Source: Kofleriaceae bacterium (lineage in GTDB: Bacteria; Myxococcota_A; Polyangia; Haliangiales; Haliangiaceae). Taken from it: a DNA stretch of 10,891 nt. Position numbers and translations under genes: made by a program. The notes under the pieces were generated by a model. The model saw nothing but the letters and a program-made list of their open reading frames with translations. It did not search any database and was not told where the DNA came from. Shown one piece after another: positions 1-10,891 of this stretch. The stretch spans positions 1 through 10,891 of the forward strand of contig JBKJLC010000256.1 of NCBI GenBank assembly GCA_046597055.1. Direction: 5' to 3'. Position 1 is the first letter of the stretch; the number at the start of each line of letters is the position of its first letter.

Positions 1-1420
1 GGCAAGCAGACCGACCTCAACTTCCACCTCAACGCCCAGATCAACGGCATCCCGGCCGCGGGCATCACCAACATCAAGGCCCACCTCGACGCGGACTACA
101 AGAGCGGGGAGGGCATCTCCGGCGAGCTCGCGGTCACCGAGGCCAAGGTCGGCGACGTCAACGTCGACGGCAAGATCACGGTCGCCAAGAACAAGTTCTC
201 GACCGGTCAGGTCCACATCAAGGCCGCGTTCCCGGCGCTGACCATCGAGGGCAACGGCACGGTCGCCGCGGGCGAACTGAACGACCTGACGACCACCGCC
301 GATCTCAAGGTCACCCCGGGCGGTGGCTCGGCGCTCGCGAGCTTCGTCGAGTCGGGCAACATCCACGTCGAGCTGAAGAAGTGGAAGCTCGCGAGCGCGC
401 TCGGCCAGCTCCACCTCAAGCCGCCGTCGTTCCTGCCGATCGAGAAGCCGCTCATCGAGATCGGCTACACGCCCGAGACCGGCATCTCCGCCAAGCTCGA
501 GACGCAGTTCAACGCGCCCATGGCGAAGAACGGCGAGAAGGGGACGTTCGTCGCCAGCTACCAGCGCGAGCGAGGTCTGTACGCGCACATCGAGTTCCCG
601 CTCACCGTGCCCGGCTTCCAGCCGACGAAGTTCACGGGCGATCTCGACGCGCAGGGCATCCGCGCGGGCGTCACCTTGATTCCCAAGGACGCCAAGATCA
701 TCAAACAAGCCAAGGTCGAGATTGGCTACGACTTCAAGACCGGCCTGTTCATCCAGGGTTCGCTGACGCTCACGCCCACCGAGAGCCTCGAGCTCGAGGT
801 CGGCGTCCGCTACGACGGGACCGGGCTCCAGGTCATGGGGATCGACTCCAAGGACAAGGACGCCACCAGCGAAGAGCACGAGGTCGCCAACTGGAAGAAG
901 AAGTTCCCGACGATCCCGCTGGCCACGGTCGGCGTCGCCTCGCTCGGGCTCCGGTTCTCGCTCGGCGTCGCCGCGGGCTACCGGATGCCGAAGGTCAAGT
1001 TCAAGAACCCGAAGCTCGAGGGCGGGCTCGATGCGCTCGAGAAGGGCGGCATGCCGGCCTTCACGTTCGGCGGCTCGGTCGCGATGGGCGCCTACCTCTC
1101 GCTCGCGCTCTCGGTCGAGGTGGTCGGCGAGATCCAGCTGCTGATCGCGACCTGCTCGGCCGGCATCGGCGCCGAGATCATGGCGCGGCTCAACCTCGAG
1201 CTGGGCGCCGACGTCGACGGCCGGTTCGCGCCCGGCGAGGGCGCGACCTTGAAGATCGACCCGTTCGTCGGCGCGTCGCTCGACCTCATCGCGTCGCTGA
1301 TCGCCACCCTCTACGCCGAGGTCTGCTGGTACACGCTGGTCGACAAGAAGTGGACGATGGCGTCCGCGAACTTCGCGCACATCGATCTGCCGTCGTTCCG
1401 CCCGTTCAAGCCGCTCGGCA
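1..1420 (+). other. Beta-strand-rich region with degenerate Y-x(3-4)-G-[IL] hairpin repeats
   Basis: Recurring units ADYKSGEGISGEL, IEIGYTPETGISAKL, ASYQRERGLYAHI, EIGYDFKTGLFIQGSL and VGVRYDGTGLQV, followed by long alternating hydrophobic/small-residue strands (SLGLRFSLGVAAGY, ARLNLELGADVDG). Confidence 0.6.
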
Positions 1421-4400
1421 TGCAGTTCGGTGGTCCCGGCGGGACCCGCCTCACGCAGGGCCTCGAGCTGCGCGACGACGCGTTCGATCAGATCACCGAG
1501 GGTGTGAAGGAGGGTGGCAAGCACGCGGGCGACGAGGAAGCCAACCGCGATGCGAAGGAGAAAGTCACGCCGGTCCTCCAGGCGTTCAAGGCGGCGGCGC
1601 CGCAGTTCGCGGAGCTCCCCGAGGGCTGGCAGAACGGCATGACCGCGGCGCCGGTCCACTTCAGCGCGATGTTCCCCGTCGGCGAGAAGGAGTGGGACTA
1701 CTACCAGGACAACGCCGATACGGCGGAGACCATCGCGCCCGCCCTTGCCATGACCAGCCCGACCGAGCGCCTGGCCAAGGCGGTCGCGATCACGGCGCGC
1801 CGCGATCCGTTCGGCGCGGGCCGGCTCATCCTCGCGTGGCGGCGCGCGCAGATCGCGGCGCAGGGCTACAACCCCGACACCGGCGTCAACGTCGTCGAGG
1901 AGCGCGAGATCGTCCAGGCCCAGATCCAGGCCAAGTACGAGCTCGACCTCGCGGCCGCCAGCGAGAAGCAGGCGCTCCAGGACGCGACCCACACCGGCCA
2001 GGTCACCAAGCAGGGCTCCGACTTCGACAAGGCCTCGGGCGAGCACACCCAGTCGGCGCAGAAGAAGCAGGCCGCGCACGAGGCGAACGTCGACAAGGCG
2101 AAGGCCCAGTTCACCGAGGCGCAGGCGCAGAAGACCACCGCGGCGAAGCAGGCGCAGCAAGAGGGCGCCCCGGTGCCGCCGGCCAAGGTCGAGGCGGCGC
2201 CGCCGCCGCCAGCGCCGGCCGCCCCCGCGGCCCCGAAGCCGCTCGTGAAGCCCGCGCCGATCCCGGCGCCGGCGCCCGTGCCGCTGCCGCCGCCGATGGA
2301 GAACTTGCCGGCGGTGACGCTGCCGGCGCTGCCGTCGGACCCGGGCGTGAGCCCGTCTGCGTCGATGGCGATCGCGCCGCAGAAGAAGCCGGCGAAGGTG
2401 GAGAGCCCGGGGGCGAAGGAAGCCCCGAAGGGCGGCGCGCCCGATCCGACGCCGGGCGCCACCTCCAAAGCGAGCCAGGCCGCCGGCGGTGGCGGCGGTA
2501 CGCCGGCCAAGGGCGGCACCAGCGGTGGCGGCGCGCCGAAGGGCGGCGGCACCACGAAGTCGATGCCCGCACCAGGACCGGCGGTGATGGCCGGCCCCGA
2601 AGGCATCATCACGCAGGACAAGACGCTCATCGCCAAGGCCGCCCAGCTGTCGGGCGGAGCGCCGGCCGCGGCCGGCAAGCCGGGTGCGACCGGCGCGGGC
2701 GCCGCGCCGACCGCCGCGCCAGCCGGTGGAGCCCCGGCGGCTGCTGCGGCGCCCGCGGGTGCCGCTCCGGCGGCGGGTGCCGCTCCGGCGGGTGGAGCCC
2801 CGGGTGCCGTCCCGGCGGGTTCCCCCGGTGCCGCCCCTGCGGGTGCAGCCCCGGGTGGCCCAGCGGCTGCGAAGGCCCCGGACGCGCTCGACCCGAGCGT
2901 GCAGAAGGTCGTCGACGCGGGCAAGGCCGAGGGGACCGCCTACGAGAAGCAGCTGGCCGGGCAGTCGGACAAGTACAAGGCCACCGTCACGACCCAGACC
3001 AAGGCCGCCGAGGCCGAGAAGCAGAAGCTCGAGACCGACGCGGCCGCAGCAAAGCAGAAGAAGGAGCAAGATCAGGCCGCCGCTGCCGCCGCGAAGCAGG
3101 AGCAGGAGCAGGCCGCGGCCACCGCCGCTCCGACCCCCGCGCCGACGCCGGCCGCACCGGCGGCTGCTGCCGTGCCACCACCCGCGCTGCCCGCACCGAC
3201 GCCTGCTGCCGTACCGCCGCCGGCACCGGCGGAAGCCGCGCTGCCCGCGCTGGGGGAGCCGGCGCCCGCTGCCGCGCCGCCAGAACCGAAGCCTGTCGAC
3301 AAGGCCGAGAAGGCGCTCCCGTTCACCGCCGGAGGCGAGGCCCACACCCTGTTCCTCGAGGCGACGCCGGCGGTGATCAAGGTCGAGATGGCCTCGGTCA
3401 AGGGCGAGGTTCAAGGCAAGTTCGACGCGATCGATCGACTCGCCGTCGTCATGAGGAAACTGCTGGACGAGACGAATCCGACACTTCGCGTGGAGCTCGA
3501 CGCGGACCTGATGCCGACCATCAATGGAATGAAGACGGACGCGCTCCAGGGCCACCTCGAGGCGGTCAAGGGCAAGGCGAAGAAGCATCCCGACGCGGTC
3601 GCGGCGCTGGCTGCCGCCGAGGCGGATGCACGGGCGCTGATCGGAGAGATCCAGGGGTGGTGCGCCGGGCGCGGCGTCACGACGCTGGACGTCGCGGAGA
3701 TCGAGGCAGAACTCGAGCGTCGTGCCGACACCCAGGCCGCAGCGGTTCTCCGCGCGAAGCAGGCGGAGGTCCAGGCCAAGTTCGAGGCGATGGCGGGCAG
3801 GCTCGGTGGAATCGACGCGACGGCTCGTCTCAAGTACCGCGGTAGTCTCGCGAAGGGACGGAAGCATCGCGGCAAGGGCTTCGCCCCATTCGATCCGGAG
3901 GCCTTCGACATCGACTTGTTCGTCGTCAGCGACTCGCTCTACGAACGGGCCAGAGCCGCGGGCGGGAGACGAATCCAGCCCGGCACGATCTCGGGCAACG
4001 ACTCCAACCTTCCGGAGATCGAGGCGCTGATCGCGGAGACCCGTCAGATCGTCAGGACGATCGTCGGCTTCAAGCCCGAGGAGATCCTCAAAGCCGACAT
4101 CTTCATGCGTACGGAGAAGGCCACCAAGGACCTGTTCAAGCCGGACACGCCCGACGAGAAGCACATACCGATCACGCCGCCCAACCCTGCCAGGCCCGCC
4201 GACGCGGCCGCTCTACCCGCCGTGGCGGCTGCCCCAGCGGCAGCCGTCGCGCCGCCCGCGGCCGCACAGGAGCCCGCGCCCGCACACGACCCGAACGCGC
4301 CCGCGCTGACCGACGACGCAGCCTCGGAGGAGGTCCCGGAGAAGCCGATCATCAAGACGCAGTTCATCGCGCCGATGATCGCGCTGATCGCGCGTATGCT

Positions 4401-5262
4401 TGGTACGAAACCGTCGCAGCCCGACGATCCGAAGGCTGCCGGACCACAGCAAACTCAGCCCACCAGCAACGACGCCAGTGCTCCGGACCCGGTAAAGGCG
4501 GAGGCCACCGGCCTCGCCAGCCGAGTCGCAATGGGGCCGTTCGTAGCGGCCGCCATGGACGTTACTGCGCGCTGGGCGGAACTCGGGAATGCTGATGTTC
4601 GCGGCAAGGAGTTGATCGCCGCGGCCAACGCTCAGCTTCTCGCGATCGGCGTCCCAGCATGCGCCCCGGAGGTCTGCGACCTTCCTCCGAAAGTCTGGGG
4701 ACGCTTCGACTGGGAGCCCTGGGAACTCGAGATGAACAAGGAGGGGCTCTCGAAAGACGCCATCAATCAGGCCGAGGCCGCACAACTGGCATCTATCGTT
4801 TATCACGAGGCTCGCCACGCCGAGCAACTGTTCAACATCGCGCGGCTGATGGCGGGCAAGAACAAGACGCCGGCGGAGATCCACGCAGCGACCCAGATCA
4901 AGGAGCAAGTGATCGAGCAGGCATGTGCGCGCCCGATAGGGACGGACGATCCGCGTGCAGCGGCTGCCGAGTCGCACCTGGCAAGCATCTTCGTCGGGCC
5001 CAAGGCGGTGGCGCGCGAGAAGCTGCTGACCGAACTCCATGCCGCGGCCACAAATCTTGCCGCGGTTAAACAAAGGCACACGCACATCTTCCAGACGGGG
5101 GACCGTGAAGCGAAGATCGCGGCGAACGCGGAGCTCACGGCAGCGACGCGGCTCGTGAACATCCTTACCGGTCGCTACAAGGAACTCCCCGAGGAGGCCG
5201 ATGCATGGGCTGTGCATGCCGAGATCGAGGCGCTGTTCAACCAGGTGGTGGCTAGCCAGTGA
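1..5262 (+). CDS. Giant polymorphic-toxin-like protein, 5'-partial; beta-rich body, Pro/Ala linkers, tandem C-terminal NTase-like and HExxH peptidase domains
   Basis: Frame +1 is stop-free from base 1 (GKQTDLNFHLNAQINGI...) through the 520 ATG to TGA 5260-5262, so the true start is upstream of the window. The 5' part has a strong G/C third-position codon bias. The architecture ends in enzyme-like domains and its stop overlaps the next gene. Confidence 0.9.
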   Translation, partial: GKQTDLNFHLNAQINGIPAAGITNIKAHLDADYKSGEGISGELAVTEAKVGDVNVDGKITVAKNKFSTGQVHIKAAFPALTIEGNGTVAAGELNDLTTTADLKVTPGGGSALASFVESGNIHVELKKWKLASALGQLHLKPPSFLPIEKPLIEIGYTPETGISAKLETQFNAPMAKNGEKGTFVASYQRERGLYAHIEFPLTVPGFQPTKFTGDLDAQGIRAGVTLIPKDAKIIKQAKVEIGYDFKTGLFIQGSLTLTPTESLELEVGVRYDGTGLQVMGIDSKDKDATSEEHEVANWKKKFPTIPLATVGVASLGLRFSLGVAAGYRMPKVKFKNPKLEGGLDALEKGGMPAFTFGGSVAMGAYLSLALSVEVVGEIQLLIATCSAGIGAEIMARLNLELGADVDGRFAPGEGATLKIDPFVGASLDLIASLIATLYAEVCWYTLVDKKWTMASANFAHIDLPSFRPFKPLGMQFGGPGGTRLTQGLELRDDAFDQITEGVKEGGKHAGDEEANRDAKEKVTPVLQAFKAAAPQFAELPEGWQNGMTAAPVHFSAMFPVGEKEWDYYQDNADTAETIAPALAMTSPTERLAKAVAITARRDPFGAGRLILAWRRAQIAAQGYNPDTGVNVVEEREIVQAQIQAKYELDLAAASEKQALQDATHTGQVTKQGSDFDKASGEHTQSAQKKQAAHEANVDKAKAQFTEAQAQKTTAAKQAQQEGAPVPPAKVEAAPPPPAPAAPAAPKPLVKPAPIPAPAPVPLPPPMENLPAVTLPALPSDPGVSPSASMAIAPQKKPAKVESPGAKEAPKGGAPDPTPGATSKASQAAGGGGGTPAKGGTSGGGAPKGGGTTKSMPAPGPAVMAGPEGIITQDKTLIAKAAQLSGGAPAAAGKPGATGAGAAPTAAPAGGAPAAAAAPAGAAPAAGAAPAGGAPGAVPAGSPGAAPAGAAPGGPAAAKAPDALDPSVQKVVDAGKAEGTAYEKQLAGQSDKYKATVTTQTKAAEAEKQKLETDAAAAKQKKEQDQAAAAAAKQEQEQAAATAAPTPAPTPAAPAAAAVPPPALPAPTPAAVPPPAPAEAALPALGEPAPAAAPPEPKPVDKAEKALPFTAGGEAHTLFLEATPAVIKVEMASVKGEVQGKFDAIDRLAVVMRKLLDETNPTLRVELDADLMPTINGMKTDALQGHLEAVKGKAKKHPDAVAALAAAEADARALIGEIQGWCAGRGVTTLDVAEIEAELERRADTQAAAVLRAKQAEVQAKFEAMAGRLGGIDATARLKYRGSLAKGRKHRGKGFAPFDPEAFDIDLFVVSDSLYERARAAGGRRIQPGTISGNDSNLPEIEALIAETRQIVRTIVGFKPEEILKADIFMRTEKATKDLFKPDTPDEKHIPITPPNPARPADAAALPAVAAAPAAAVAPPAAAQEPAPAHDPNAPALTDDAASEEVPEKPIIKTQFIAPMIALIARMLGTKPSQPDDPKAAGPQQTQPTSNDASAPDPVKAEATGLASRVAMGPFVAAAMDVTARWAELGNADVRGKELIAAANAQLLAIGVPACAPEVCDLPPKVWGRFDWEPWELEMNKEGLSKDAINQAEAAQLASIVYHEARHAEQLFNIARLMAGKNKTPAEIHAATQIKEQVIEQACARPIGTDDPRAAAAESHLASIFVGPKAVAREKLLTELHAAATNLAAVKQRHTHIFQTGDREAKIAANAELTAATRLVNILTGRYKELPEEADAWAVHAEIEALFNQVVASQ
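2161..3300 (+). repeat. Pro/Ala/Gly low-complexity linker with tandem GAAPA/GGAP and AAVPPPA units, interrupted by a short helical segment
   Basis: Translation shows GAAPAAGAAPAGGAPGAVPAGSPGAAPAGAAPGG (about 2690-2870) and AAVPPPALPAPTPAAVPPPAPA (about 3160-3235), with matching degenerate nucleotide repeats (ggtgccgctccggcg twice). Confidence 0.8.
3760..4180 (+). other. Nucleotidyltransferase-like (Pol-beta superfamily) putative toxin domain within the giant CDS
   Basis: LKYRGSLAKG (GS at 3841-3846), then FDIDLFVVS (D at 3907 and 3913), and a later KADIF (D at 4096). This matches the hG[GS]...DhDh...D catalytic layout of Pol-beta-type NTases. Confidence 0.6.
4540..5262 (+). other. Zinc metallopeptidase-like C-terminal domain (HExxH plus distal Glu)
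   Basis: LASIVYHEARHAEQ (HEARH at 4804-4818) with downstream YKELPEEADAW (Glu at 5191-5196) as a candidate third ligand, a gluzincin-like arrangement. Confidence 0.75.
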
Positions 5263-6593
5263 CGAAAGAGTTACGAACGCTGTGCGAGCGTCTATCGCAG
5301 GGGCTCGATCGAGATCCGCACGAGCTCGCGCTGCGGCTAGGGACCGTCGACCACCGGGGATCCGACGGGTGGATCAGGGTCGCACCGTCGGGTGCGACGT
5401 TCTCGGCCGCAAACATCTGGGCGAGTCCCGACTCTGGAACGACGACGACGGTCAACCTCGTTCCCGGCGTACCCCTGACGCTCGAAAACGTGAGAACCAC
5501 CCTCGGCCCGTATTCCGAATCCCCGCGCCTCCATCCGCACGATCCGCGCAAAGCCGTGTTCTCGCCATGGCCCCTTGGCTCGCATCCGTTCTTCATCGCG
5601 GTAATAGCCTACGTCTCTGCGGATGAGCTCCTGGAGGATTCGGCGGCCGTTCAGAGGCTAACGATTACCTGCTCACCCACGCCCGCCGCCGACATTGCAA
5701 GGCCGCAAAAATCCGCCAACGAGCCACCGGCGGCTCCGGTGTGGCCGCCTTTTCTAGCGGGCCGCGTGAGCTTCGAGCTCGGGTCGTGGCGTCAAGATTC
5801 GCTATCGGACGTGCGGAGCGAACTCGAGCGCGTTCTTGGCGTCAAGTTCAAGCCGAGTCACGAGAAAGTCTATGACGGTGAGCCTGCCTTCGAATGCGAG
5901 CTACCAGCGTGCGAGCTACGCCTGAACGCCTGGCCGGCGGTCGAACCCAGGCTCACGTACTTCAACTTCATCGCCCTGTCTCCCCGCGGTCAGGCTCCCC
6001 CTCGCCCGCCGGCGGAGGACGTCGGCGAGGCGCTTGCTGCGTATCTGAGGAACGCCGGGTGCGACTGGTACGTTCCGGACCTCATGGAGGGCTACGAAAG
6101 CGACGGCTTGCTCGGCGCTCGCATCCTCGAACCGGACGTCGTCGTGTCCGTGCTCGCACCGCGATGGCTCGCCTGGACCGATGCCGAGCAGAACGAGCAA
6201 GGTCGGGCCCTCCTCGGGCAGATCGCGGAGCTGTGGGTTACCGCTGCGCGGCGTACGGCCGATCCCGTCGCTGACGTCGCGCGCCGCCGCGTCGAACTCG
6301 AGGAGTGGGGCCTGAACGTCCCGCCCCGCTCGCGCCTACGCATCCTCATCACGTATGCCATCCAGGAGCAGCTTTCGTCGATCCATGAGCAGCTGTTCGA
6401 GCTGAGCTTGATGAACGACGGCGAGCGCGAGCTAGAACAAGATCTCGAAGCCCGGCTGGCAGAGTGGCGGCAGGCGCTAGACGCGCTCGCGGAGCCAGTG
6501 CGCCAGACCGGCAACGACGTGATGCGCGAGCAACTCACCGAACTTTGCGCCGAGCTCGACAAGTTGGGGCGCTCTACCAGGAGAGGTGGATAG
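5259..6593 (+). CDS. Hypothetical protein, putative multi-module immunity protein (444 aa)
   Basis: GTG start overlaps the toxin TGA (GTGA at 5259-5262). Globular-looking sequence with a Pro/Ala linker (PTPAADIARPQKSANEPPAAP) between modules and weaker GC3 bias. The immunity role is inferred from position only. Confidence 0.75.
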   Translation: MTKELRTLCERLSQGLDRDPHELALRLGTVDHRGSDGWIRVAPSGATFSAANIWASPDSGTTTTVNLVPGVPLTLENVRTTLGPYSESPRLHPHDPRKAVFSPWPLGSHPFFIAVIAYVSADELLEDSAAVQRLTITCSPTPAADIARPQKSANEPPAAPVWPPFLAGRVSFELGSWRQDSLSDVRSELERVLGVKFKPSHEKVYDGEPAFECELPACELRLNAWPAVEPRLTYFNFIALSPRGQAPPRPPAEDVGEALAAYLRNAGCDWYVPDLMEGYESDGLLGARILEPDVVVSVLAPRWLAWTDAEQNEQGRALLGQIAELWVTAARRTADPVADVARRRVELEEWGLNVPPRSRLRILITYAIQEQLSSIHEQLFELSLMNDGERELEQDLEARLAEWRQALDALAEPVRQTGNDVMREQLTELCAELDKLGRSTRRGG

Positions 6594-6629
6594 GCCAACT
6601 GCGTGGCGGAGGCGCGCGTTTTGATGGGC

Positions 6630-6869
6630 ATCGGGCCTCGAGCCACGGGCATAGCGGTCGTGGCAGAGCTCGGCGAAGCGTACGAACAAGGCGACGATGC
6701 GGGTCGCCCCGGGGGGGGAGCGGGGCACGGCCGCCTCCTGCTTGCTGGCGAGGTCGGGCGTGATGACCGTGGACGGCGGGTCGTGGCAGCGGCGGCCGAT
6801 GATGTTGCTGTGGCAGAAGATGTCGGCGGCGCGTGAGTCATTGGCAAGCAGGTTGCTTCACACTTCGTC
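6630..6869 (-). pseudogene. istB: Degenerate C-terminal fragment of IS21-family helper ATPase IstB
   Basis: Minus frame reads DEV*SNLLANDSRAADIFCHSNIIGRRCHDPPSTVITPDLASKQEAAVPRSPPGATRIVALFVRFAELCH. This follows the IstB pattern after Walker B as recalled (DE.GY...AAD.L..II.RR.E..STIITTNL..KQW..FPGA....AL.DR...HCH). It has an in-frame stop and no start. Confidence 0.6.
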
Positions 6870-6887
6870 ACAGGGTGTGGCTAGGCC

Positions 6888-7490
6888 ATGGCGCTCTACG
6901 AATATTCGATCTTTCTCGTCCGCGAGCAGGGGCGCGGGCCGCTGCTGGCGGACCTCGAGCGCGCCGGACTCGTCGGCGGCGGCGTGATGCTCGATGTTCC
7001 GTGCGAGGCGGATGAGTGGCGGAACGAGTTGCACGCGACCTGCCCACTGTCGGTCGTGGAGCTCACGCTGCTCCGTTCTCAGTTCGACGCGCTGCTGTCC
7101 GAGCGGTCCGGCGCATTCATCGAGTGGCTGTGGTGTACCGTCTCCGCGGTTGGCATCGCATACGCATACATTCCGGGCGGCGGTGACATTCCGTACTACG
7201 AACAGGGCCGTCGCACCGACGCAGTGACCGTGGAGCAACTCGGGGAGCTCGTCGAGACCGGGGCAGTTCGCGTGTTGCATCCGCTGATGCTCTTCGCGGC
7301 GCGCACCGGCGCGTGCGACTGGGCGTCCGCGACGAAATCCATGCTCGTCGAGACGCGGGCCGGGCTGGGGTGTCTGCTGATACTCGGCCAGCGTGACCCG
7401 AAGAACGCTTCGCTGGATATCTTCGAGCCGGCCACGTTATACGAGCGGGTACGCGATGAGCTGCAGCAACTCCAGGGGCGAACGCCTTGA
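6888..7490 (+). CDS. Hypothetical protein, putative orphan immunity protein (200 aa)
   Basis: ATG at 6888, protein-like composition, and a stop that overlaps the next gene's TTG (TTGA at 7487-7490). Same strand as the toxin cluster. No family recognised. Confidence 0.75.
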   Translation: MALYEYSIFLVREQGRGPLLADLERAGLVGGGVMLDVPCEADEWRNELHATCPLSVVELTLLRSQFDALLSERSGAFIEWLWCTVSAVGIAYAYIPGGGDIPYYEQGRRTDAVTVEQLGELVETGAVRVLHPLMLFAARTGACDWASATKSMLVETRAGLGCLLILGQRDPKNASLDIFEPATLYERVRDELQQLQGRTP

Positions 7491-7731
7491 TCGCCGACCG
7501 CGCGCAACCGGCCCCCATGACACCGGCCGGCCGTAGGCTCGCCGCCATGCGGGGGCACATCGAGGCATCGCGCGCGAACCCGCTCACGCTTGTTCCCGCG
7601 GCGCGTTCCTTGTACGAGGCGGGCAAGACCCGCAGCGAAGTGCTCACCGCAATCTATGGAGTCGACCTGCCGGCTGAGGCCGAGTTGATCGAACGTTACT
7701 TCGTCGTTGGCGGAGCCCCGCTCCGAGTGCT

Positions 7732-7740
7732 GTGGGATGC
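7732..7740 (+). repeat. Target site duplication, left copy (GTGGGATGC)
   Basis: Identical 9-mer at 9017-9025, immediately outside the other IR. Confidence 0.95.
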
Positions 7741-7755
7741 CTGATGGATCCCCTC

Positions 7756-7833
7756 GTTTCGGCGGCGTAAGTCGTCGAAACCGCTCCGGATAATCGCGGG
7801 AATTTCGGCCAGCACGAGGTGGTTTCCGACGGC
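7756..7833 (+). promoter_or_regulatory. Alternative RNA hairpins over the transposase leader/RBS
   Basis: 7756-7766 pairs with 7771-7781 (11 bp, two G-U, GTAA tetraloop). Alternatively 7771-7786 pairs with 7816-7833, covering the GAGGTGG RBS. GATAAT at 7789-7794 is a possible -10. Confidence 0.45.
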
Positions 7834-9003
7834 ATGATGAACCGCCGCGCGATGTCGGACTTCGTGAAGGACCCGCTGAAGGTCAAGGCCACCCTCGAGA
7901 AGCTATTCGAGAACGATCTGCACAGCCGGCGGGTGTTGTCGCTCGCCAACAGCGTCGTCGGGGTGCTCGATGCGGCGGCTCTCTCGATCCACGCGATCGG
8001 GCGCGGCTACGCGCACGCGACGGGGCTGAACGCCAAGCACGGCGTCAAGCAGACGGACCGGCTCCTCAGCAACGCCGGGATCGACGTGTGGGCGCTGTTC
8101 AAGCCGTGGGCGGACTTCGTCATCGGACCGCGCAAGGAGATCGTGATCGCCCTCGACTGGACCGATTTCGACGCCGACGACCACTCGACGCTGGCCGGGT
8201 ATCTGATCACCAGTCACGGCCGCGCGACACCGCTGATCTGGATGACCGTCACGAAATCGGAACTCGAAGGGAAGCGGAACGGGCACGAGTACCGGCTGCT
8301 CGAGCGGCTCCACGCGTGCGTCGCGCCCGATGTGAAGATCACGGTGCTTGCCGATCGCGGCTTCGGCGACCAGAAGCTGTACCGACTGCTCGAGACGCTG
8401 GGATGGGACTACGTCATCCGGTTTCGTGGCGCGATTCAGGTCGAGGGCGCCGACGGCGAACGCAAGCCGGCCTCGCAGTGGGTGCCGTCGACAGGTCGTG
8501 CGACGATGATTCGGGACGCGCGGGTCACGCGCACGCGCACGGAGGTGCCCGCGGTTGTCGTGGTCCACGCGCCGAAGATGAAGGAGGCCTGGTGCCTCGC
8601 GACGACGATGCGCGAAGCGAAGGCTGCCGAGGTCGTGAAGTTGTATGGCCGCCGGTTCACGATCGAAGAGACCTTCCGCGACCAGAAGGATTCGCGCTTC
8701 GGCCTCGGATTGTCCGCGACCCACATCGGCAAGGCCGATCGCCGCGACAGGCTGCTCCTCGTGGCTGCGATGGCGCAGGCGCTGCTGACGCTTCTCGGCG
8801 CCGCCGGTGAGGCGTGCGGCCTGGATCGGCTGATGAAGACCAACACGTCGAAGAAGCGCACGATGTCGCTGTTCAACCAAGGCATCAACCTCTACGCAGC
8901 GATCCCGATGATGAAGGAGGAGAAGCTCACGCTGCTGATGCCAGCGTTCGATGCCGAGGTTCGCCGCCACGAGGTATTCCGGCAGGTGTTCGGCGCGATT
9001 TGA
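7819..9003 (+). CDS. IS4-family DDE transposase
   Basis: Catalytic motifs IALDWTD, VLADRGF and YGRRFTIEETFRDQK (the IS4 Y-2-R-3-E-6-K signature). The stop overlaps the right IR. The real start may be ATG 7834/7837, downstream of GAGGTGG (7816-7822). Confidence 0.96.
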   Translation: MVSDGMMNRRAMSDFVKDPLKVKATLEKLFENDLHSRRVLSLANSVVGVLDAAALSIHAIGRGYAHATGLNAKHGVKQTDRLLSNAGIDVWALFKPWADFVIGPRKEIVIALDWTDFDADDHSTLAGYLITSHGRATPLIWMTVTKSELEGKRNGHEYRLLERLHACVAPDVKITVLADRGFGDQKLYRLLETLGWDYVIRFRGAIQVEGADGERKPASQWVPSTGRATMIRDARVTRTRTEVPAVVVVHAPKMKEAWCLATTMREAKAAEVVKLYGRRFTIEETFRDQKDSRFGLGLSATHIGKADRRDRLLLVAAMAQALLTLLGAAGEACGLDRLMKTNTSKKRTMSLFNQGINLYAAIPMMKEEKLTLLMPAFDAEVRRHEVFRQVFGAI

Positions 9004-9016
9004 GGGGATGGCTCAG

Positions 9017-9025
9017 GTGGGATGC
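9017..9025 (+). repeat. Target site duplication, right copy (GTGGGATGC)
   Basis: Identical 9-mer at 7732-7740. Confidence 0.95.
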
Positions 9026-9529
9026 ACATCCGTGGGAGCTCATGATTCCGCTCGACCGGGGCGGGCCCACGTTCGTCCTCCATCCCAACGTGGCCGATGA
9101 CGAGGCCCGAGCCTACGCCCAGGCGCCGCACGTGCTCTTGCTGGGCCTGATGAACTACCCGGACGTTCCGTTCGGCATGTCGATGTTCGGCTACGACCTC
9201 GACGAGGTCGCAGCCGGACGCTCGACGGTCGTGGGCCTCCCGGATGTGATGCAAGTGCCCGAGTCGGGCGCTCGGTTCACGGTACTCGGGCCCTCGCTGA
9301 TCGACGTCTTCGCCGATGTGATCAGGGGCTACATCGCGAGTTGGGGTACCCGCGACGGCAGCGGAGCGAACGAAGAACGCCACGAGGCCGAGAAGGAGCT
9401 CGCGGCCGTCGAGGCGGTCCGGCGGGAACTCGCAGGCCGCTGATCGTTGCGCGGTGCGCCGGTCCGCCGCAGGCCTCCAAGTTCGTCCCGCGACGGCCCA
9501 CGGCTGGCCCGCCGGGATAACATCCGCGC

Positions 9530-10618
9530 ATGGCCCAGGACCTGGCACTTCCAGCATCGGGTCCGGACATGATCGAGCTCCTGCCGGTCCCACGAGTCGT
9601 CGTCCCGCGCGCGGGCGTGCTCGTGCTGCCTCGCGATGGCGTCGTCGCGCCGGCTGCCGCGTCGCGTCGCCTCTGCCAGGCGCTCGAGCGCGCGACCGAT
9701 GGCCGGTGGTCGAGCGGGACAGACGGAGTCGTCGCTGTGGCGATCGATCCGGCGGTGCCGTCGCAGGGCTATCGGTTGTCGGTCCACGCCGCCGGCGTGT
9801 CGATCGTCGGCGGCGATCTGGCGGGCGCGTTCTACGCTGCCTGCACGCTCGCGCAACTCGTGGACGTGCACGGCACGAAACTCCCATACGTCGAGATCGA
9901 GGATCACCCCGAGCTGATGGTCCGGGGCGTGATGCTCGACATCAGCAGGGACAAGGTCCCGACGATGGCGACCCTGCGCGAGCTGATCGACCTGCTTGCG
10001 AGCTGGAAGATCAATCAGTTCCAGCTCTACACGGAGCATACGTTCGCGTATCGCGCGCACCCGGAGGTGTGGGCGACCGCGTCGCCGATCACTGCGGAGG
10101 AAGTCGTCGAGCTCGACGCGTACTGCCGCGAGCGCTTCATCGAGCTGGTACCGAACCAGAACAGCTTCGGCCACCTCGAGCGGTGGTTCATGCACGAGCG
10201 GTATCGACCGCTCGCCGAGACCGACGGCGGCGTCGAGCTGCCCTGGGGCGAGATCACCAGGCATCCGTTCACGCTCGCGCCGTCGGCCGCGGGGCTCGAG
10301 CTCCTCGACGGGCTGTACGGCGAGCTATTGCCGAACTTCACGAGCTCGCGCTTCAACGTGGGCTGCGACGAGACCTACGACGTGGGGCTGGGCAAGTCAC
10401 GTGCCCGGGTCCAGGCGGTGGGGCGCCCGCGGGTGTGGCTGGACTTCGTGCGCGAGATCCACGCGCTCGCCGGGCGCCACGGCCGGTCGCTCCAGGTCTG
10501 GGGCGACACCGTGCGACGGCATCCCGAGCTGTTCCCGGACCTGCCGCGCGACATCACGATCCTCGACTGGGGCTACGATCGGGAGCGCAGCCTGGCTCAG
10601 CAGGAGCGAATTGTTTGA
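9530..10618 (+). CDS. Glycoside hydrolase family 20 (beta-N-acetylhexosaminidase-like), probably C-terminally truncated
   Basis: N-terminal LLPVPR and QGYRLSV...GAFYA, then IEDHPELMVRGVMLDISRDKVP, INQFQLYTEH, IELVPNQNSFGH, the catalytic pair in NVGCDETYD, WGD and DWGY. The ORF stops 13 codons after DWGY. An alternative start is ATG 9569. Confidence 0.88.
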   Translation: MAQDLALPASGPDMIELLPVPRVVVPRAGVLVLPRDGVVAPAAASRRLCQALERATDGRWSSGTDGVVAVAIDPAVPSQGYRLSVHAAGVSIVGGDLAGAFYAACTLAQLVDVHGTKLPYVEIEDHPELMVRGVMLDISRDKVPTMATLRELIDLLASWKINQFQLYTEHTFAYRAHPEVWATASPITAEEVVELDAYCRERFIELVPNQNSFGHLERWFMHERYRPLAETDGGVELPWGEITRHPFTLAPSAAGLELLDGLYGELLPNFTSSRFNVGCDETYDVGLGKSRARVQAVGRPRVWLDFVREIHALAGRHGRSLQVWGDTVRRHPELFPDLPRDITILDWGYDRERSLAQQERIV

Positions 10619-10708
10619 TGGGAAAGTGGCCGATTCTGGTCAATGAAACTGATGGTCGCCCGCTTTCCCCTTTTCATCCCCTACGGTGATCACGGTTCCA
10701 TCAAACAA
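10611..10708. repeat. Inverted repeat TTGTTTGATGG...CCATCAAACAA bounding a lower-GC 98-bp segment
   Basis: Perfect 11-bp IR at 10611-10621 and 10698-10708, extending imperfectly inward (TGTTTGATGGGAAAGTGGCC versus TGTTTGATGGAACCGTGATC, 15/20). Confidence 0.75.
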
Positions 10709-10747
10709 CACGTGATCTGAGGCTCTCTGCCCCCAGAGCGGACCGCA

Positions 10748-10815
10748 GCGCGAGGCGCAGCCCGCCGTTCGTGGCCTGACCATCGCTGCGCCTCGCGCGA
10801 GGACCGCCTCGCGCG
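10748..10815. repeat. GC-rich overlapping palindromes (two mutually exclusive hairpins)
   Basis: GCGCGAGGCGCAGC (10748-10761) pairs perfectly with GCTGCGCCTCGCGC (10785-10798). CGCGCGAGG (10794-10802) pairs with CCTCGCGCG (10807-10815) around an ACCG loop. Confidence 0.75.
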
Positions 10816-10891
10816 GACAGCCAGGCTGGAATCGGAGTACCGGTGCACGTCCGCGCGGTGACGCCAGGTGTGGCGCCCATCGTTCTTCGTG

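Follow-up and report, generated by a model that had tools for sequence, protein, structure and literature searches.

A giant eCIS-core protein with two enzyme-like C-terminal domains, a likely two-warhead toxin, and a partner gene fused in mirror order

By analyzing a window of 10,891 nucleotides (the whole stretch of DNA studied) from a Kofleriaceae bacterium, described as a soil bacterium, we found a giant eCIS-core protein that ends in a nucleotidyltransferase-like domain (NT) and a metallopeptidase-like domain (MP), and directly behind it a single gene in which the partner families of both domains are fused in reverse order. This is likely, with a probability of about 0.7, a two-warhead antibacterial toxin together with a multivalent immunity protein. 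A poly-toxin with tandem warheads and a fused poly-immunity partner had been proposed in the initial annotation of this DNA, and the proposal is supported, as each warhead is terminal elsewhere with a partner of its own and both partner families are found fused here. The features are the following:

1..5262 (+): toxin reading frame (frame +1), 1,753 aa, open from base 1, TGA stop at 5260-5262
1..3309 (+): conserved trunk, first beta-rich and then helical, followed by Pro/Ala-rich linkers; its upstream portion is on contig C179
3310..3759 (+): helical pre-toxin unit, which precedes NT in eCIS-core proteins
3760..4179 (+): NT, candidate warhead 1, with the fold of a minimal Pol-beta nucleotidyltransferase, a Gly-Ser motif at 3841-3846 and Asp-x-Asp at 3907-3915
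4180..4488 (+): inter-warhead linker, Pro/Ala-rich
4489..5262 (+): MP, candidate warhead 2, zincin-type peptidase with HExxH at 4804-4818 and, beyond a long helical hairpin, the third-ligand Glu at 5194-5196
5259-6593 (+): putative fused immunity ORF, 444 aa, three modules
5259..5675 (+): module 1, of a family of stand-alone genes behind MP-ending toxins
5739..6113 (+): module 2, of a family of stand-alone genes behind NT-ending toxins
6120..6590 (+): module 3, helical and immunity-like, with stand-alone relatives behind a different small HExxH peptidase
6888..7490 (+): orphan immunity-like gene, with a 62% identical gene in genome G030
7547..9443 (+): second orphan immunity-like gene, as 7547-7740 and 9017-9443, split by an IS4-type element
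7819-9003: IS4-type transposase (DDE_Tnp_1, E=2.5e-16), with a 9-base direct repeat on both sides

The giant reading frame with two enzyme-like C-terminal domains, as first annotated, was confirmed (3760-4179 and 4489-5259, with a Pro/Ala-rich stretch between them), and so was the overlap (GTGA) of its stop codon with the GTG start of the 444-aa gene at 5259-6593. The frame runs off the 5' end of the window. Contig C179 (minus strand), which shares a 117-base overlap with the window, extends it upstream by 1,528 aa of open frame, for a total of about 3,230 aa from the first ATG (~3,233). Two eCIS-core (PF13699/DUF4157) domains are located on C179, near the N-terminus of the toxin (PF13699, E=2.2e-50, in two stretches). 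The first 700 aa of the trunk show 87%, 84% and 37% identity in genomes G023, G451 and G030, respectively. The pre-toxin unit matches the region ahead of NT in locus L018 (74%) and in loci L023 and L020 (26%; E 6e-15 and 1e-10), and the same unit followed by NT was seen by eye in proteins P0009, P0010, P0012, P0017, P0025 and P0030. A linker similar to the inter-warhead one lies ahead of MP in loci L018 and L214. The region is also matched by contigs of three public sequencing runs from one study, among them X1, which may itself be where this DNA comes from: an X1 contig covers 4255-7050 with zero differences, an X2 contig covers 5108-6482, and another X2 contig (3802-4522) joins NT to the start of MP. 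No RNA run was listed among the public ones containing this DNA.

The structure model of NT has a pLDDT of 96.2, and in its VIA comparison minimal nucleotidyltransferases take the first four places (top Z 7.8, rmsd 3.0, 91 aligned); the fold match is middling (Z at most 7.8), and the best Foldseek E-value was 0.03. In an alignment of 64 rows, G28 (64/64), S29 (62/64), D50 (62/64) and D52 (64/64) are conserved, and S57-D58 is near-invariant. A third carboxylate is expected in the Pol-beta nucleotidyltransferase superfamily; none was conserved at alignment positions 112, 114 and 116, which are mostly hydrophobic. Of 99 relatives found, the 98 profile-matched representatives (99 matches) all have NT as the last domain, as do 47 out of 49 genome loci, the exceptions being L018, with the same NT-MP end, and the broken L033. 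One gene family occurs behind NT in 45 of the 49 loci, 44 of which were used to build its HMM. Members of the NT family occur with RHS and HINT architectures. With an NT relative as query, the ESM Atlas returned mostly unnamed clusters, with nucleotidyltransferase families at 0.86. A word-index search with NT at near length gave no match, no NT relative was found in viral contigs, and neither NT, MP nor the 444-aa protein had a match in Pfam, NCBIfam and PDB sequence scans. NT is probably Ntox45, judging by fold, DxD motif and RHS/HINT architectures as described. Both are alpha+beta domains with a DxD motif, related to minimal Pol-beta nucleotidyltransferases and found with RHS and HINT; unlike for NT, neither an immunity family nor a link to PVC/eCIS is listed for Ntox45 in the available portions of its descriptions (PMC3482391, PMC5512222).

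In MP, residues H106, E107, H110 and E236 are invariant in all 54 aligned rows, and the model (pLDDT 96.8) has three strands ahead of the motif helix. Against solved zincins no significant fold match was obtained: the best Foldseek hit was IrrE (E 0.21), with weak rows for minimal gluzincins, and the VIA match list was filled by the helical hairpin. No named Tox-MPTase or DUF4157 Pfam family was detected among the 54 members at E up to 0.01, while DUF6782 was weakly matched in four of them. The HExxH peptidase family linked to module 3 has no detectable kinship with MP beyond the motif helix (hhalign 1.6%). MP is the terminal domain in most of its 89 relatives, with a further domain behind it in four, and is often the sole recognizable domain in short proteins. 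The module-1 family is found behind MP in 57 of 86 loci, 54 of which contributed to its HMM. MP occurs in none of the 99 NT proteins and NT in none of the 86 MP loci.

As first annotated, the 444-aa gene was split into modules by a linker. Modularity held, with a linker of ~21 aa between modules 1 and 2, but the modules are three in number and there is no linker between modules 2 and 3. Among the 68,779 six-frame ORFs of its own genome, the 444-aa ORF was the top match both for the HMM of the MP partner family, built from 54 independent genes (module 1, residues 2-137, E=2.7e-22), and for that of the NT partner family, built from 44 genes (module 2, E=0.009; subfamily HMM, E=0.0015). Profile-profile alignment with hhalign gave 99.6% for module 1 with the MP partner family, 95.7% and 97.5% for module 2 with the NT partner family, to which it is only ~20% identical, and 96.1% for module 3, whose stand-alone relatives are found at L013 and L210 in genome G236. 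The resulting matrix of modules vs families is diagonal (96-99.6% on and at most 1.03% off the diagonal). When the 444-aa protein was used as a blind query against 401 genomes, five module-1 matches appeared, four of them directly behind MP. By these profile matches modules 1 and 2 belong to the MP and NT partner families, so the order of the fusion mirrors that of the warheads. No signal peptide is visible in the 444-aa protein; a lipoprotein-like signal is present in 14 of 57 module-1 relatives, vs none of 50 frames of the module-2 family. VgrG2b with its C-terminal metallopeptidase (PMC6899460; immunity PA0261) is an HExxH toxin against bacteria, and lipoproteins are common among its immunity proteins, which those 14 relatives also appear to be; VgrG2b differs from MP in that there is no sequence or fold match between the two, in the long helical insert of MP, and in the lack of a signal peptide here.

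Complexes of each toxin domain with each module had been suggested as a check in the initial annotation, and NT with module 2 passed, scoring 0.76 vs 0.00 for the best of three controls. The mark applied, which is only a rough guide for our own alignments, was attained by 116 of 157 solved pairs and by 2 of 215 mismatched ones. At least 89% of contacts are shared between runs, the partner pLDDT is at least 83, and the predicted interface takes in G28, D50-D52 and D58. According to this model, module 2 would bind over the NT active site. Module 1, for its part, would bind MP. For module 3, no toxin was recovered in the own genome (G000), where its HExxH peptidase had no tblastn match, nor in four related genomes, and the ESM Atlas gave no usable match. 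A further C-terminal domain, domain A, was considered as the target of module 3 and rejected, as the partner family that goes with domain A is a separate, unrelated one; the module-3 profile had no match in 20 domain-A loci.

Two further genomes have the three-module fusion (L018 and L214), the gene overlapping the toxin stop in L018 and beginning 6 bases behind it in L214. Genome G523 carries the fusion with deletions in module 2; NT was not found in this assembly, which is 89% complete and was searched without a positive control. P0111 consists of modules 2 and 3 without module 1, and L160 has the mirror order with separate genes. NT retains all near-invariant family residues and is 78% identical to L018 with a pN/pS of 0.40; among the modules, the lowest pN/pS against L018 is that of module 2 (0.33). 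All 10 domain pairs measured fall between 0.33 and 0.60. Domain A is an extra warhead in L018 and G023, and was not matched in plasmids. A general mirror rule is not supported: the order failed in all 11 toxins that have domain A at an internal position, none of which has the domain-A partner family downstream (0.6-7.9 kb after the stop; a twelfth, open-ended locus is left out of the count), and held in one of four toxins with an internal MP, the other three lacking the inner domain's partner.

Variable C-termini among homologues, which the initial annotation had anticipated, were borne out. The orthologous toxin in G023 shares the trunk (87%) but ends wholly differently, with other C-terminal domains and one gene behind it, and shares the downstream glycoside hydrolase gene. 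The second orphan gene in the window is homologous to that single gene behind the G023 toxin, and its uninterrupted form is also present in contigs of all three public runs. The G030 relative of the first orphan gene immediately follows a toxin-like ORF whose C-terminal domain is a different one. For the spacer at 6594-6887, matches elsewhere in the genome were no more than weak, and none to the G030 toxin was significant. On sequence grounds, the locus thus appears to be of the polymorphic toxin type, with an N-terminal trafficking domain, exchanged C-termini and, by gene-neighbourhood homology, cognate as well as orphan immunity genes downstream, and the toxin of the polytoxin type, each C-terminal domain ending toxin-type proteins alone elsewhere.

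After processing near the eCIS-core domains, the toxin would be exported through a contractile injection system. NT would then transfer a nucleotide to a protein or tRNA in the cytoplasm, and MP would cut a protein target. As for their origin, a peptidase plus immunity unit likely came between an NT toxin and the NT immunity gene; both pairs would then have fused in frame, so that the older warhead was not displaced and retained its antidote.

It is unlikely that only the terminal MP works as a toxin, with NT and modules 2-3 as passengers and the fusion as a tolerated read-through of an orphan-immunity array. Inner domains usually lack a partner gene, module 3 has no toxin in its own genome, P0111 demonstrates that modules 2 and 3 can stand alone, and in G523 module 2 has deletions and NT was not found. 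Against this, NT keeps its near-invariant residues and a pN/pS of 0.40 relative to L018, module 2 has the lowest value of the modules (0.33), the predicted NT-module 2 complex passes, and the fusion is kept in three genomes. A still less probable reading has NT as the real warhead and MP as an autoprocessing enzyme that releases it, with module 1 as an MP inhibitor or chaperone. Zincins have been proposed to process multi-domain conflict proteins, even from a C-terminal position (PMC5512222), and a further domain follows MP in 4 of 89 relatives. Autoprocessing by MP, which the initial annotation had also allowed for, is nevertheless weakened to unlikely because MP is terminal in most of these relatives and a conserved gene family of its own lies downstream; moreover, MP is often the sole recognizable domain of short proteins, NT is absent from the 86 MP loci and MP from the 99 NT proteins, and eCIS-core peptidase-type domains are already present at the toxin N-terminus.

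Two functional warheads may also be combined with delivery other than by an eCIS, the ~2,000-aa trunk being a stalk or translocon (contact-dependent or other), or with a eukaryotic target, which we regard as improbable. The size of ~3,230 aa, far above the 1,100 aa cited for eCIS cargo (PMC11297309), speaks for it, as do eCIS genes being absent from the window and unseen on C179, and some eCIS-core toxins kill yeast (PMC8213781). On the other side, PF13699 is reported to be highly specific for eCIS (PMC8213781), and the genome harbors tube genes (five PF06841 matches) and sheath genes (two PF04984 matches), with both kinds occurring on contig C74, although toxin and eCIS genes lie on different contigs of this 303-contig assembly; the cognate immunity genes point to bacterial targets. 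For the preferred reading of an eCIS-delivered two-warhead toxin, the closest known systems include the eCIS-associated DUF4157/PVC-metallopeptidase toxins (PMC8213781, PMC11297309, PMC3482391), which share the N-terminal DUF4157, the very long linker, the variable C-terminal toxin and the eCIS genes in the genome. Most verified examples are reported in the available text of these sources without an immunity gene, unlike the two warheads, three-module immunity protein and orphan array here.

That the locus departs from a norm of one toxin and one immunity gene, as first annotated, was overstated, as polytoxins and polyimmunity proteins have already been described. Polytoxins likewise have a C-terminal module that combines several unrelated toxin domains within one polypeptide (Iyer et al. 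2011, PMC3239186), but a matching fused immunity protein is not described in the parts of that paper available, whereas here both partners are fused in mirror order. Polyimmunity proteins similarly combine several unrelated immunity domains per polypeptide (Zhang et al. 2012, PMC3482391), in operons usually without toxin genes and as a backup defence, while the 444-aa gene overlaps the toxin stop and two of its three modules match its own warheads. Two toxic domains, each needing its own immunity (experimental there), also occur in WHIX double-blade T6SS effectors such as Awe1 (PMC12135965), but there they flank the secretion domain and have separate immunity genes upstream and downstream, in contrast to the tandem warheads and single fused gene here. 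In the literature searched, which covered few subscription papers, no report of direct, mirror-order cognate coupling between a polytoxin and a polyimmunity protein was found.

The two candidate toxin-immunity pairs, i.e. the probable Ntox45 with its partner and the peptidase family with its partner, had no Pfam or NCBIfam match in the scans, and no partner family is listed for Ntox45 in the 2012 table as available (PMC3482391). The probable Ntox45 pair occurs in Bacillus, Xanthomonas, Pseudomonas, Acinetobacter, Snodgrassella and cyanobacteria, and both pairs are small and readily testable in E. coli. The locus allows one to test directly whether a polytoxin has two working warheads, and how its producer survives them.

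Diversification of polymorphic toxins is thought to proceed mainly by tip replacement, with old immunity genes being pushed downstream. This locus shows accretion instead, the antidote of the inner warhead having been kept and fused. Tentatively, toxin-immunity pairs can perhaps stack as nested brackets, a new unit landing on the toxin/immunity junction and fusing at both ends. If so, a warhead and its matching antidote module would be gained in one step with the old pair kept, the three modules would be a record of three successive captures, and the module order, read backwards, could assign unknown immunity domains to unknown toxins.

The giant toxin gene lies in a draft genome of 8.4 Mb and 72% G+C and extends over two contigs, as contig C179 overlaps the first 117 bases of the window (contig C242) and adds 1,528 codons to the frame, giving a protein of ~3,233 aa counted from the first ATG. 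Two eCIS-core domains (PF13699, E=2.2e-50) lie in the C179 portion, and eCIS-type tube and sheath genes are present in the genome, on contigs other than those of the toxin. PF13699 has 30 matches in the genome, and a second large eCIS-core protein with the same N-terminal leader is encoded on C179 (26427-30803, in L002). The closest titled relatives of the locus are found in myxobacterial genome bins (loci L018, L032 and L053). One study supplied three public runs, of which X1 is possibly the window's own source; their contigs match this region and span both junctions, from NT to MP and from MP to the 444-aa gene.

1-5262, plus strand (frame +1): giant toxin frame, open from base 1; conserved trunk to 3309
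3760-4179, plus strand: NT, nucleotidyltransferase-fold domain (warhead 1)
4489-5259, plus strand: MP, zincin-type peptidase domain (warhead 2)
5259-6593: 444-aa gene, with module 1 (5259-5675), module 2 (5739-6113) and module 3 (6120-6590)
7732-9025: IS4-type element with short inverted ends, flanked by a 9-base direct repeat and interrupting the gene 7547-7740/9017-9443

Third-position G+C is 0.96 in the trunk but lower further on (0.86 in NT, 0.77 in MP and 0.74-0.80 in the downstream gene), as expected for more recently acquired toxin ends.

Among 1.84 billion representatives, 99 relatives of NT were found, in RHS, HINT, prePAAR and eCIS-core proteins, and at most 60 residues follow the domain in 98 of 98 profile-matched relatives; MP was found in none of the 99 proteins. 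One protein (P0022, 1,225 aa) has three NT-like repeats in tandem. The four best structural neighbors of the NT model (pLDDT 96.2) are minimal nucleotidyltransferases, at a middling score (Z 7.8, rmsd 3.0, 91 aligned), and the best Foldseek E was 0.03. Gly28, Ser29, Asp50 and Asp52 are invariant or near-invariant, and no conserved third carboxylate was seen at alignment positions 112, 114 and 116. Ntox45 is listed by Zhang et al. 2012 as alpha+beta, with DxD, RHS and HINT, in an entry that names no immunity protein (PMC3482391), and in Iyer et al. 2017 a minimal Pol-beta NTase has Ntox45 as its closest relative (PMC5512222). NT thus probably belongs to Ntox45 or its kin.

MP (model pLDDT 96.8) gave no significant fold or family match, and its HExxH and downstream Glu are invariant in 54 of 54 aligned relatives. 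A match was obtained in 89 of 90 loci examined, and a further domain of at least 250 aa follows MP in four of the 89 (L133, L157, L160 and L166), seven of the MP loci being truncated by contig ends. As an alternative, the initial annotation had the peptidase as an autoprocessing domain; the mostly terminal position and the dedicated partner gene argue instead for a toxin domain. In a rough pattern test, lipoprotein-like signals preceded 14 of 57 MP partners vs. none of 50 NT-partner frames, which suggests that MP may act in the envelope, in parallel to the peptidase toxin VgrG2b (PMC6899460). No signal of this kind is present in the fused 444-aa protein. Elsewhere in the same genome, the MP-partner family has a stand-alone member on contig C3 (28667-29443, in L216; E=1.8e-7), next to which no MP gene was seen.

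When 401 genomes were searched blindly with the 444-aa protein, residues about 5-140 were matched five times, in four cases by a gene immediately after an MP-ending protein, and residues 298-389 once. With these four left out, a single family (48 clusters at 90% identity and 36 at 50%) took in 54 of the 71 genes chosen downstream of MP. When its HMM was run on the 68,779 six-frame ORFs of the genome, residues 2-137 of the 444-aa gene were the top hit (E=2.7e-22). The 49 NT loci gave 46 genes downstream of the domain, 44 of which (41 clusters at 90%) went into the HMM; L018 was kept as a test case, and L058 was dropped because it is unlike the others. The 444-aa gene again came first (residues about 179-274, E=0.009), and a subfamily of 10 gave E=0.0015. 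In the profile-profile comparison, the MP partner matched module 1 at 99.6%, the NT partner matched module 2 at 95.7% and 97.5%, and the stand-alone relatives of module 3 matched that module at 96.1%, while all eight off-diagonal pairs stayed at or below 1.03%. The fused poly-immunity partner proposed in the initial annotation for tandem warheads is supported at the level of families, and the order, as assigned from these profiles, is a mirror image: NT-MP, then MP partner, NT partner and module 3. Complex prediction for NT and module 2 gave 0.76 vs. 0.00 for the best of three controls; the mark, which applies roughly here, was attained in 116 of 157 solved pairs and in 2 of 215 mismatched ones. 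At least 89% of contacts are shared between runs, partner pLDDT is 83 or more, and the predicted interface covers the NT catalytic residues, which supports, but does not show, binding of NT by module 2.

C-terminal extensions of >30 aa are absent from MP partners in 57 MP loci and occur among the NT loci in L055 alone, where the partner gene (3442-4095) has two tandem copies of the domain; neither NT nor its partner was found in 86 MP loci. The fusion recurs in L018 (NT 78%, MP 73% and modules 56-70% identical) and in L214 from genome G523 (44% over 440 aa), in which NT was not found and module 2 carries deletions. Another match looks like the L018 locus and was left out of the count. Uncorrected pN/pS was 0.33-0.60 in all ten domain pairs measured. 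The protein P0111 is made up of modules 2 and 3, and its start is that of module 2 (51% over 282 aa), as would be the case for a precursor of the fusion. In L160, MP is followed by another domain, a different gene and then the MP partner, i.e. mirror order with separate genes. Order and related loci are most simply explained by nested capture, in which a new unit would have been taken up at the toxin-immunity junction, between the old toxin and its antidote. Possibly, NT was instead inserted into an upstream linker and its partner appended behind, which would give the identical order.

Homologues of the locus differ in their toxin ends. The first 700 aa of the trunk, searched in 61 genomes, matched in two others; in G023 they are 87% identical and the same glycoside hydrolase gene lies downstream, but DNA similarity stops near 3132 and the toxin has different terminal domains, with a single gene behind it. 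The interrupted gene (7547-7740/9017-9443) is a homologue of that single gene; the relative of the gene 6888-7490 is in G030, 62% identical and placed immediately after a toxin-like end of a further kind. It is therefore likely that the two genes are orphan immunity genes belonging to other alleles. The form without the IS4-type element is also present in contigs of all three runs, so the insertion is either polymorphic or an assembly choice. The last codons of the spacer 6594-6887 have six residues in common with the end of the G030 toxin ahead of the 6888-7490 homologue, with no significant alignment between spacer and that toxin; the spacer may be what is left of a toxin tip. Further on, the GH20 glycoside hydrolase gene (9530-10618) is shorter than its G023 counterpart, to which similarity ends near 10593, at the start of a multi-copy element (10590-10891) that is matched at several contig ends and has about tenfold higher depth. 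In G023, part of the trunk is repeated behind the glycoside hydrolase gene (L008:9786-10492; 74% identical), possibly as the homology arm of a silent cassette, and the orthologous toxin stands head to head with genes for an AAA ATPase and a further eCIS-effector-like protein (L007:8642-14433).

A third domain, A, lies ahead of NT in L018, an assembly to be treated with caution since at its end the contig returns to where A begins, and is also found in G023. This toxin-like family (e.g. L008:3900-4859, L180-L199, L227-L237) occurs in 22 of 401 genomes, often internally in multi-domain proteins, and has no Pfam match; its C-terminal motif may resemble that of ADP-ribosyltransferase toxins. When last, it is followed by a partner family of its own (250-340 aa), unrelated to module 3. 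That partner family was not found in the 0.6-7.9 kb after any of 11 toxins with internal A, nor in L008 or L018, and the MP partner is missing within 0.9-1.25 kb after three of four internal-MP toxins. Thus, multi-domain toxins are common in the phylum and a retained inner antidote is the exception. Stand-alone relatives of module 3 sit behind a different peptidase, twice in genome G236 (L013 and L210). In both cases the relative follows a small peptidase-like protein with HExxH, and the two proteins share 30% identity. These form a third, unnamed candidate toxin-immunity pair; the peptidase was not found in the window's genome or four relatives.

Polytoxins have already been described (PMC3239186), as have DUF4157 toxins, mostly without immunity genes (PMC8213781). 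Polyimmunity proteins are usually encoded apart from toxin genes (PMC3482391), whereas the 444-aa gene lies directly behind the giant toxin, and double-blade WHIX effectors have two separate immunity genes (PMC12135965) in contrast to the one fused gene here. Literature searches found no cognate mirror-order fusion; the supplements of PMC9424270, PMC11297309 and 10.1101/2021.10.19.465003 could list these families. The locus is well supported as a real variant of the described toxin and immunity kinds, and it yields two testable candidate toxin-immunity pairs.
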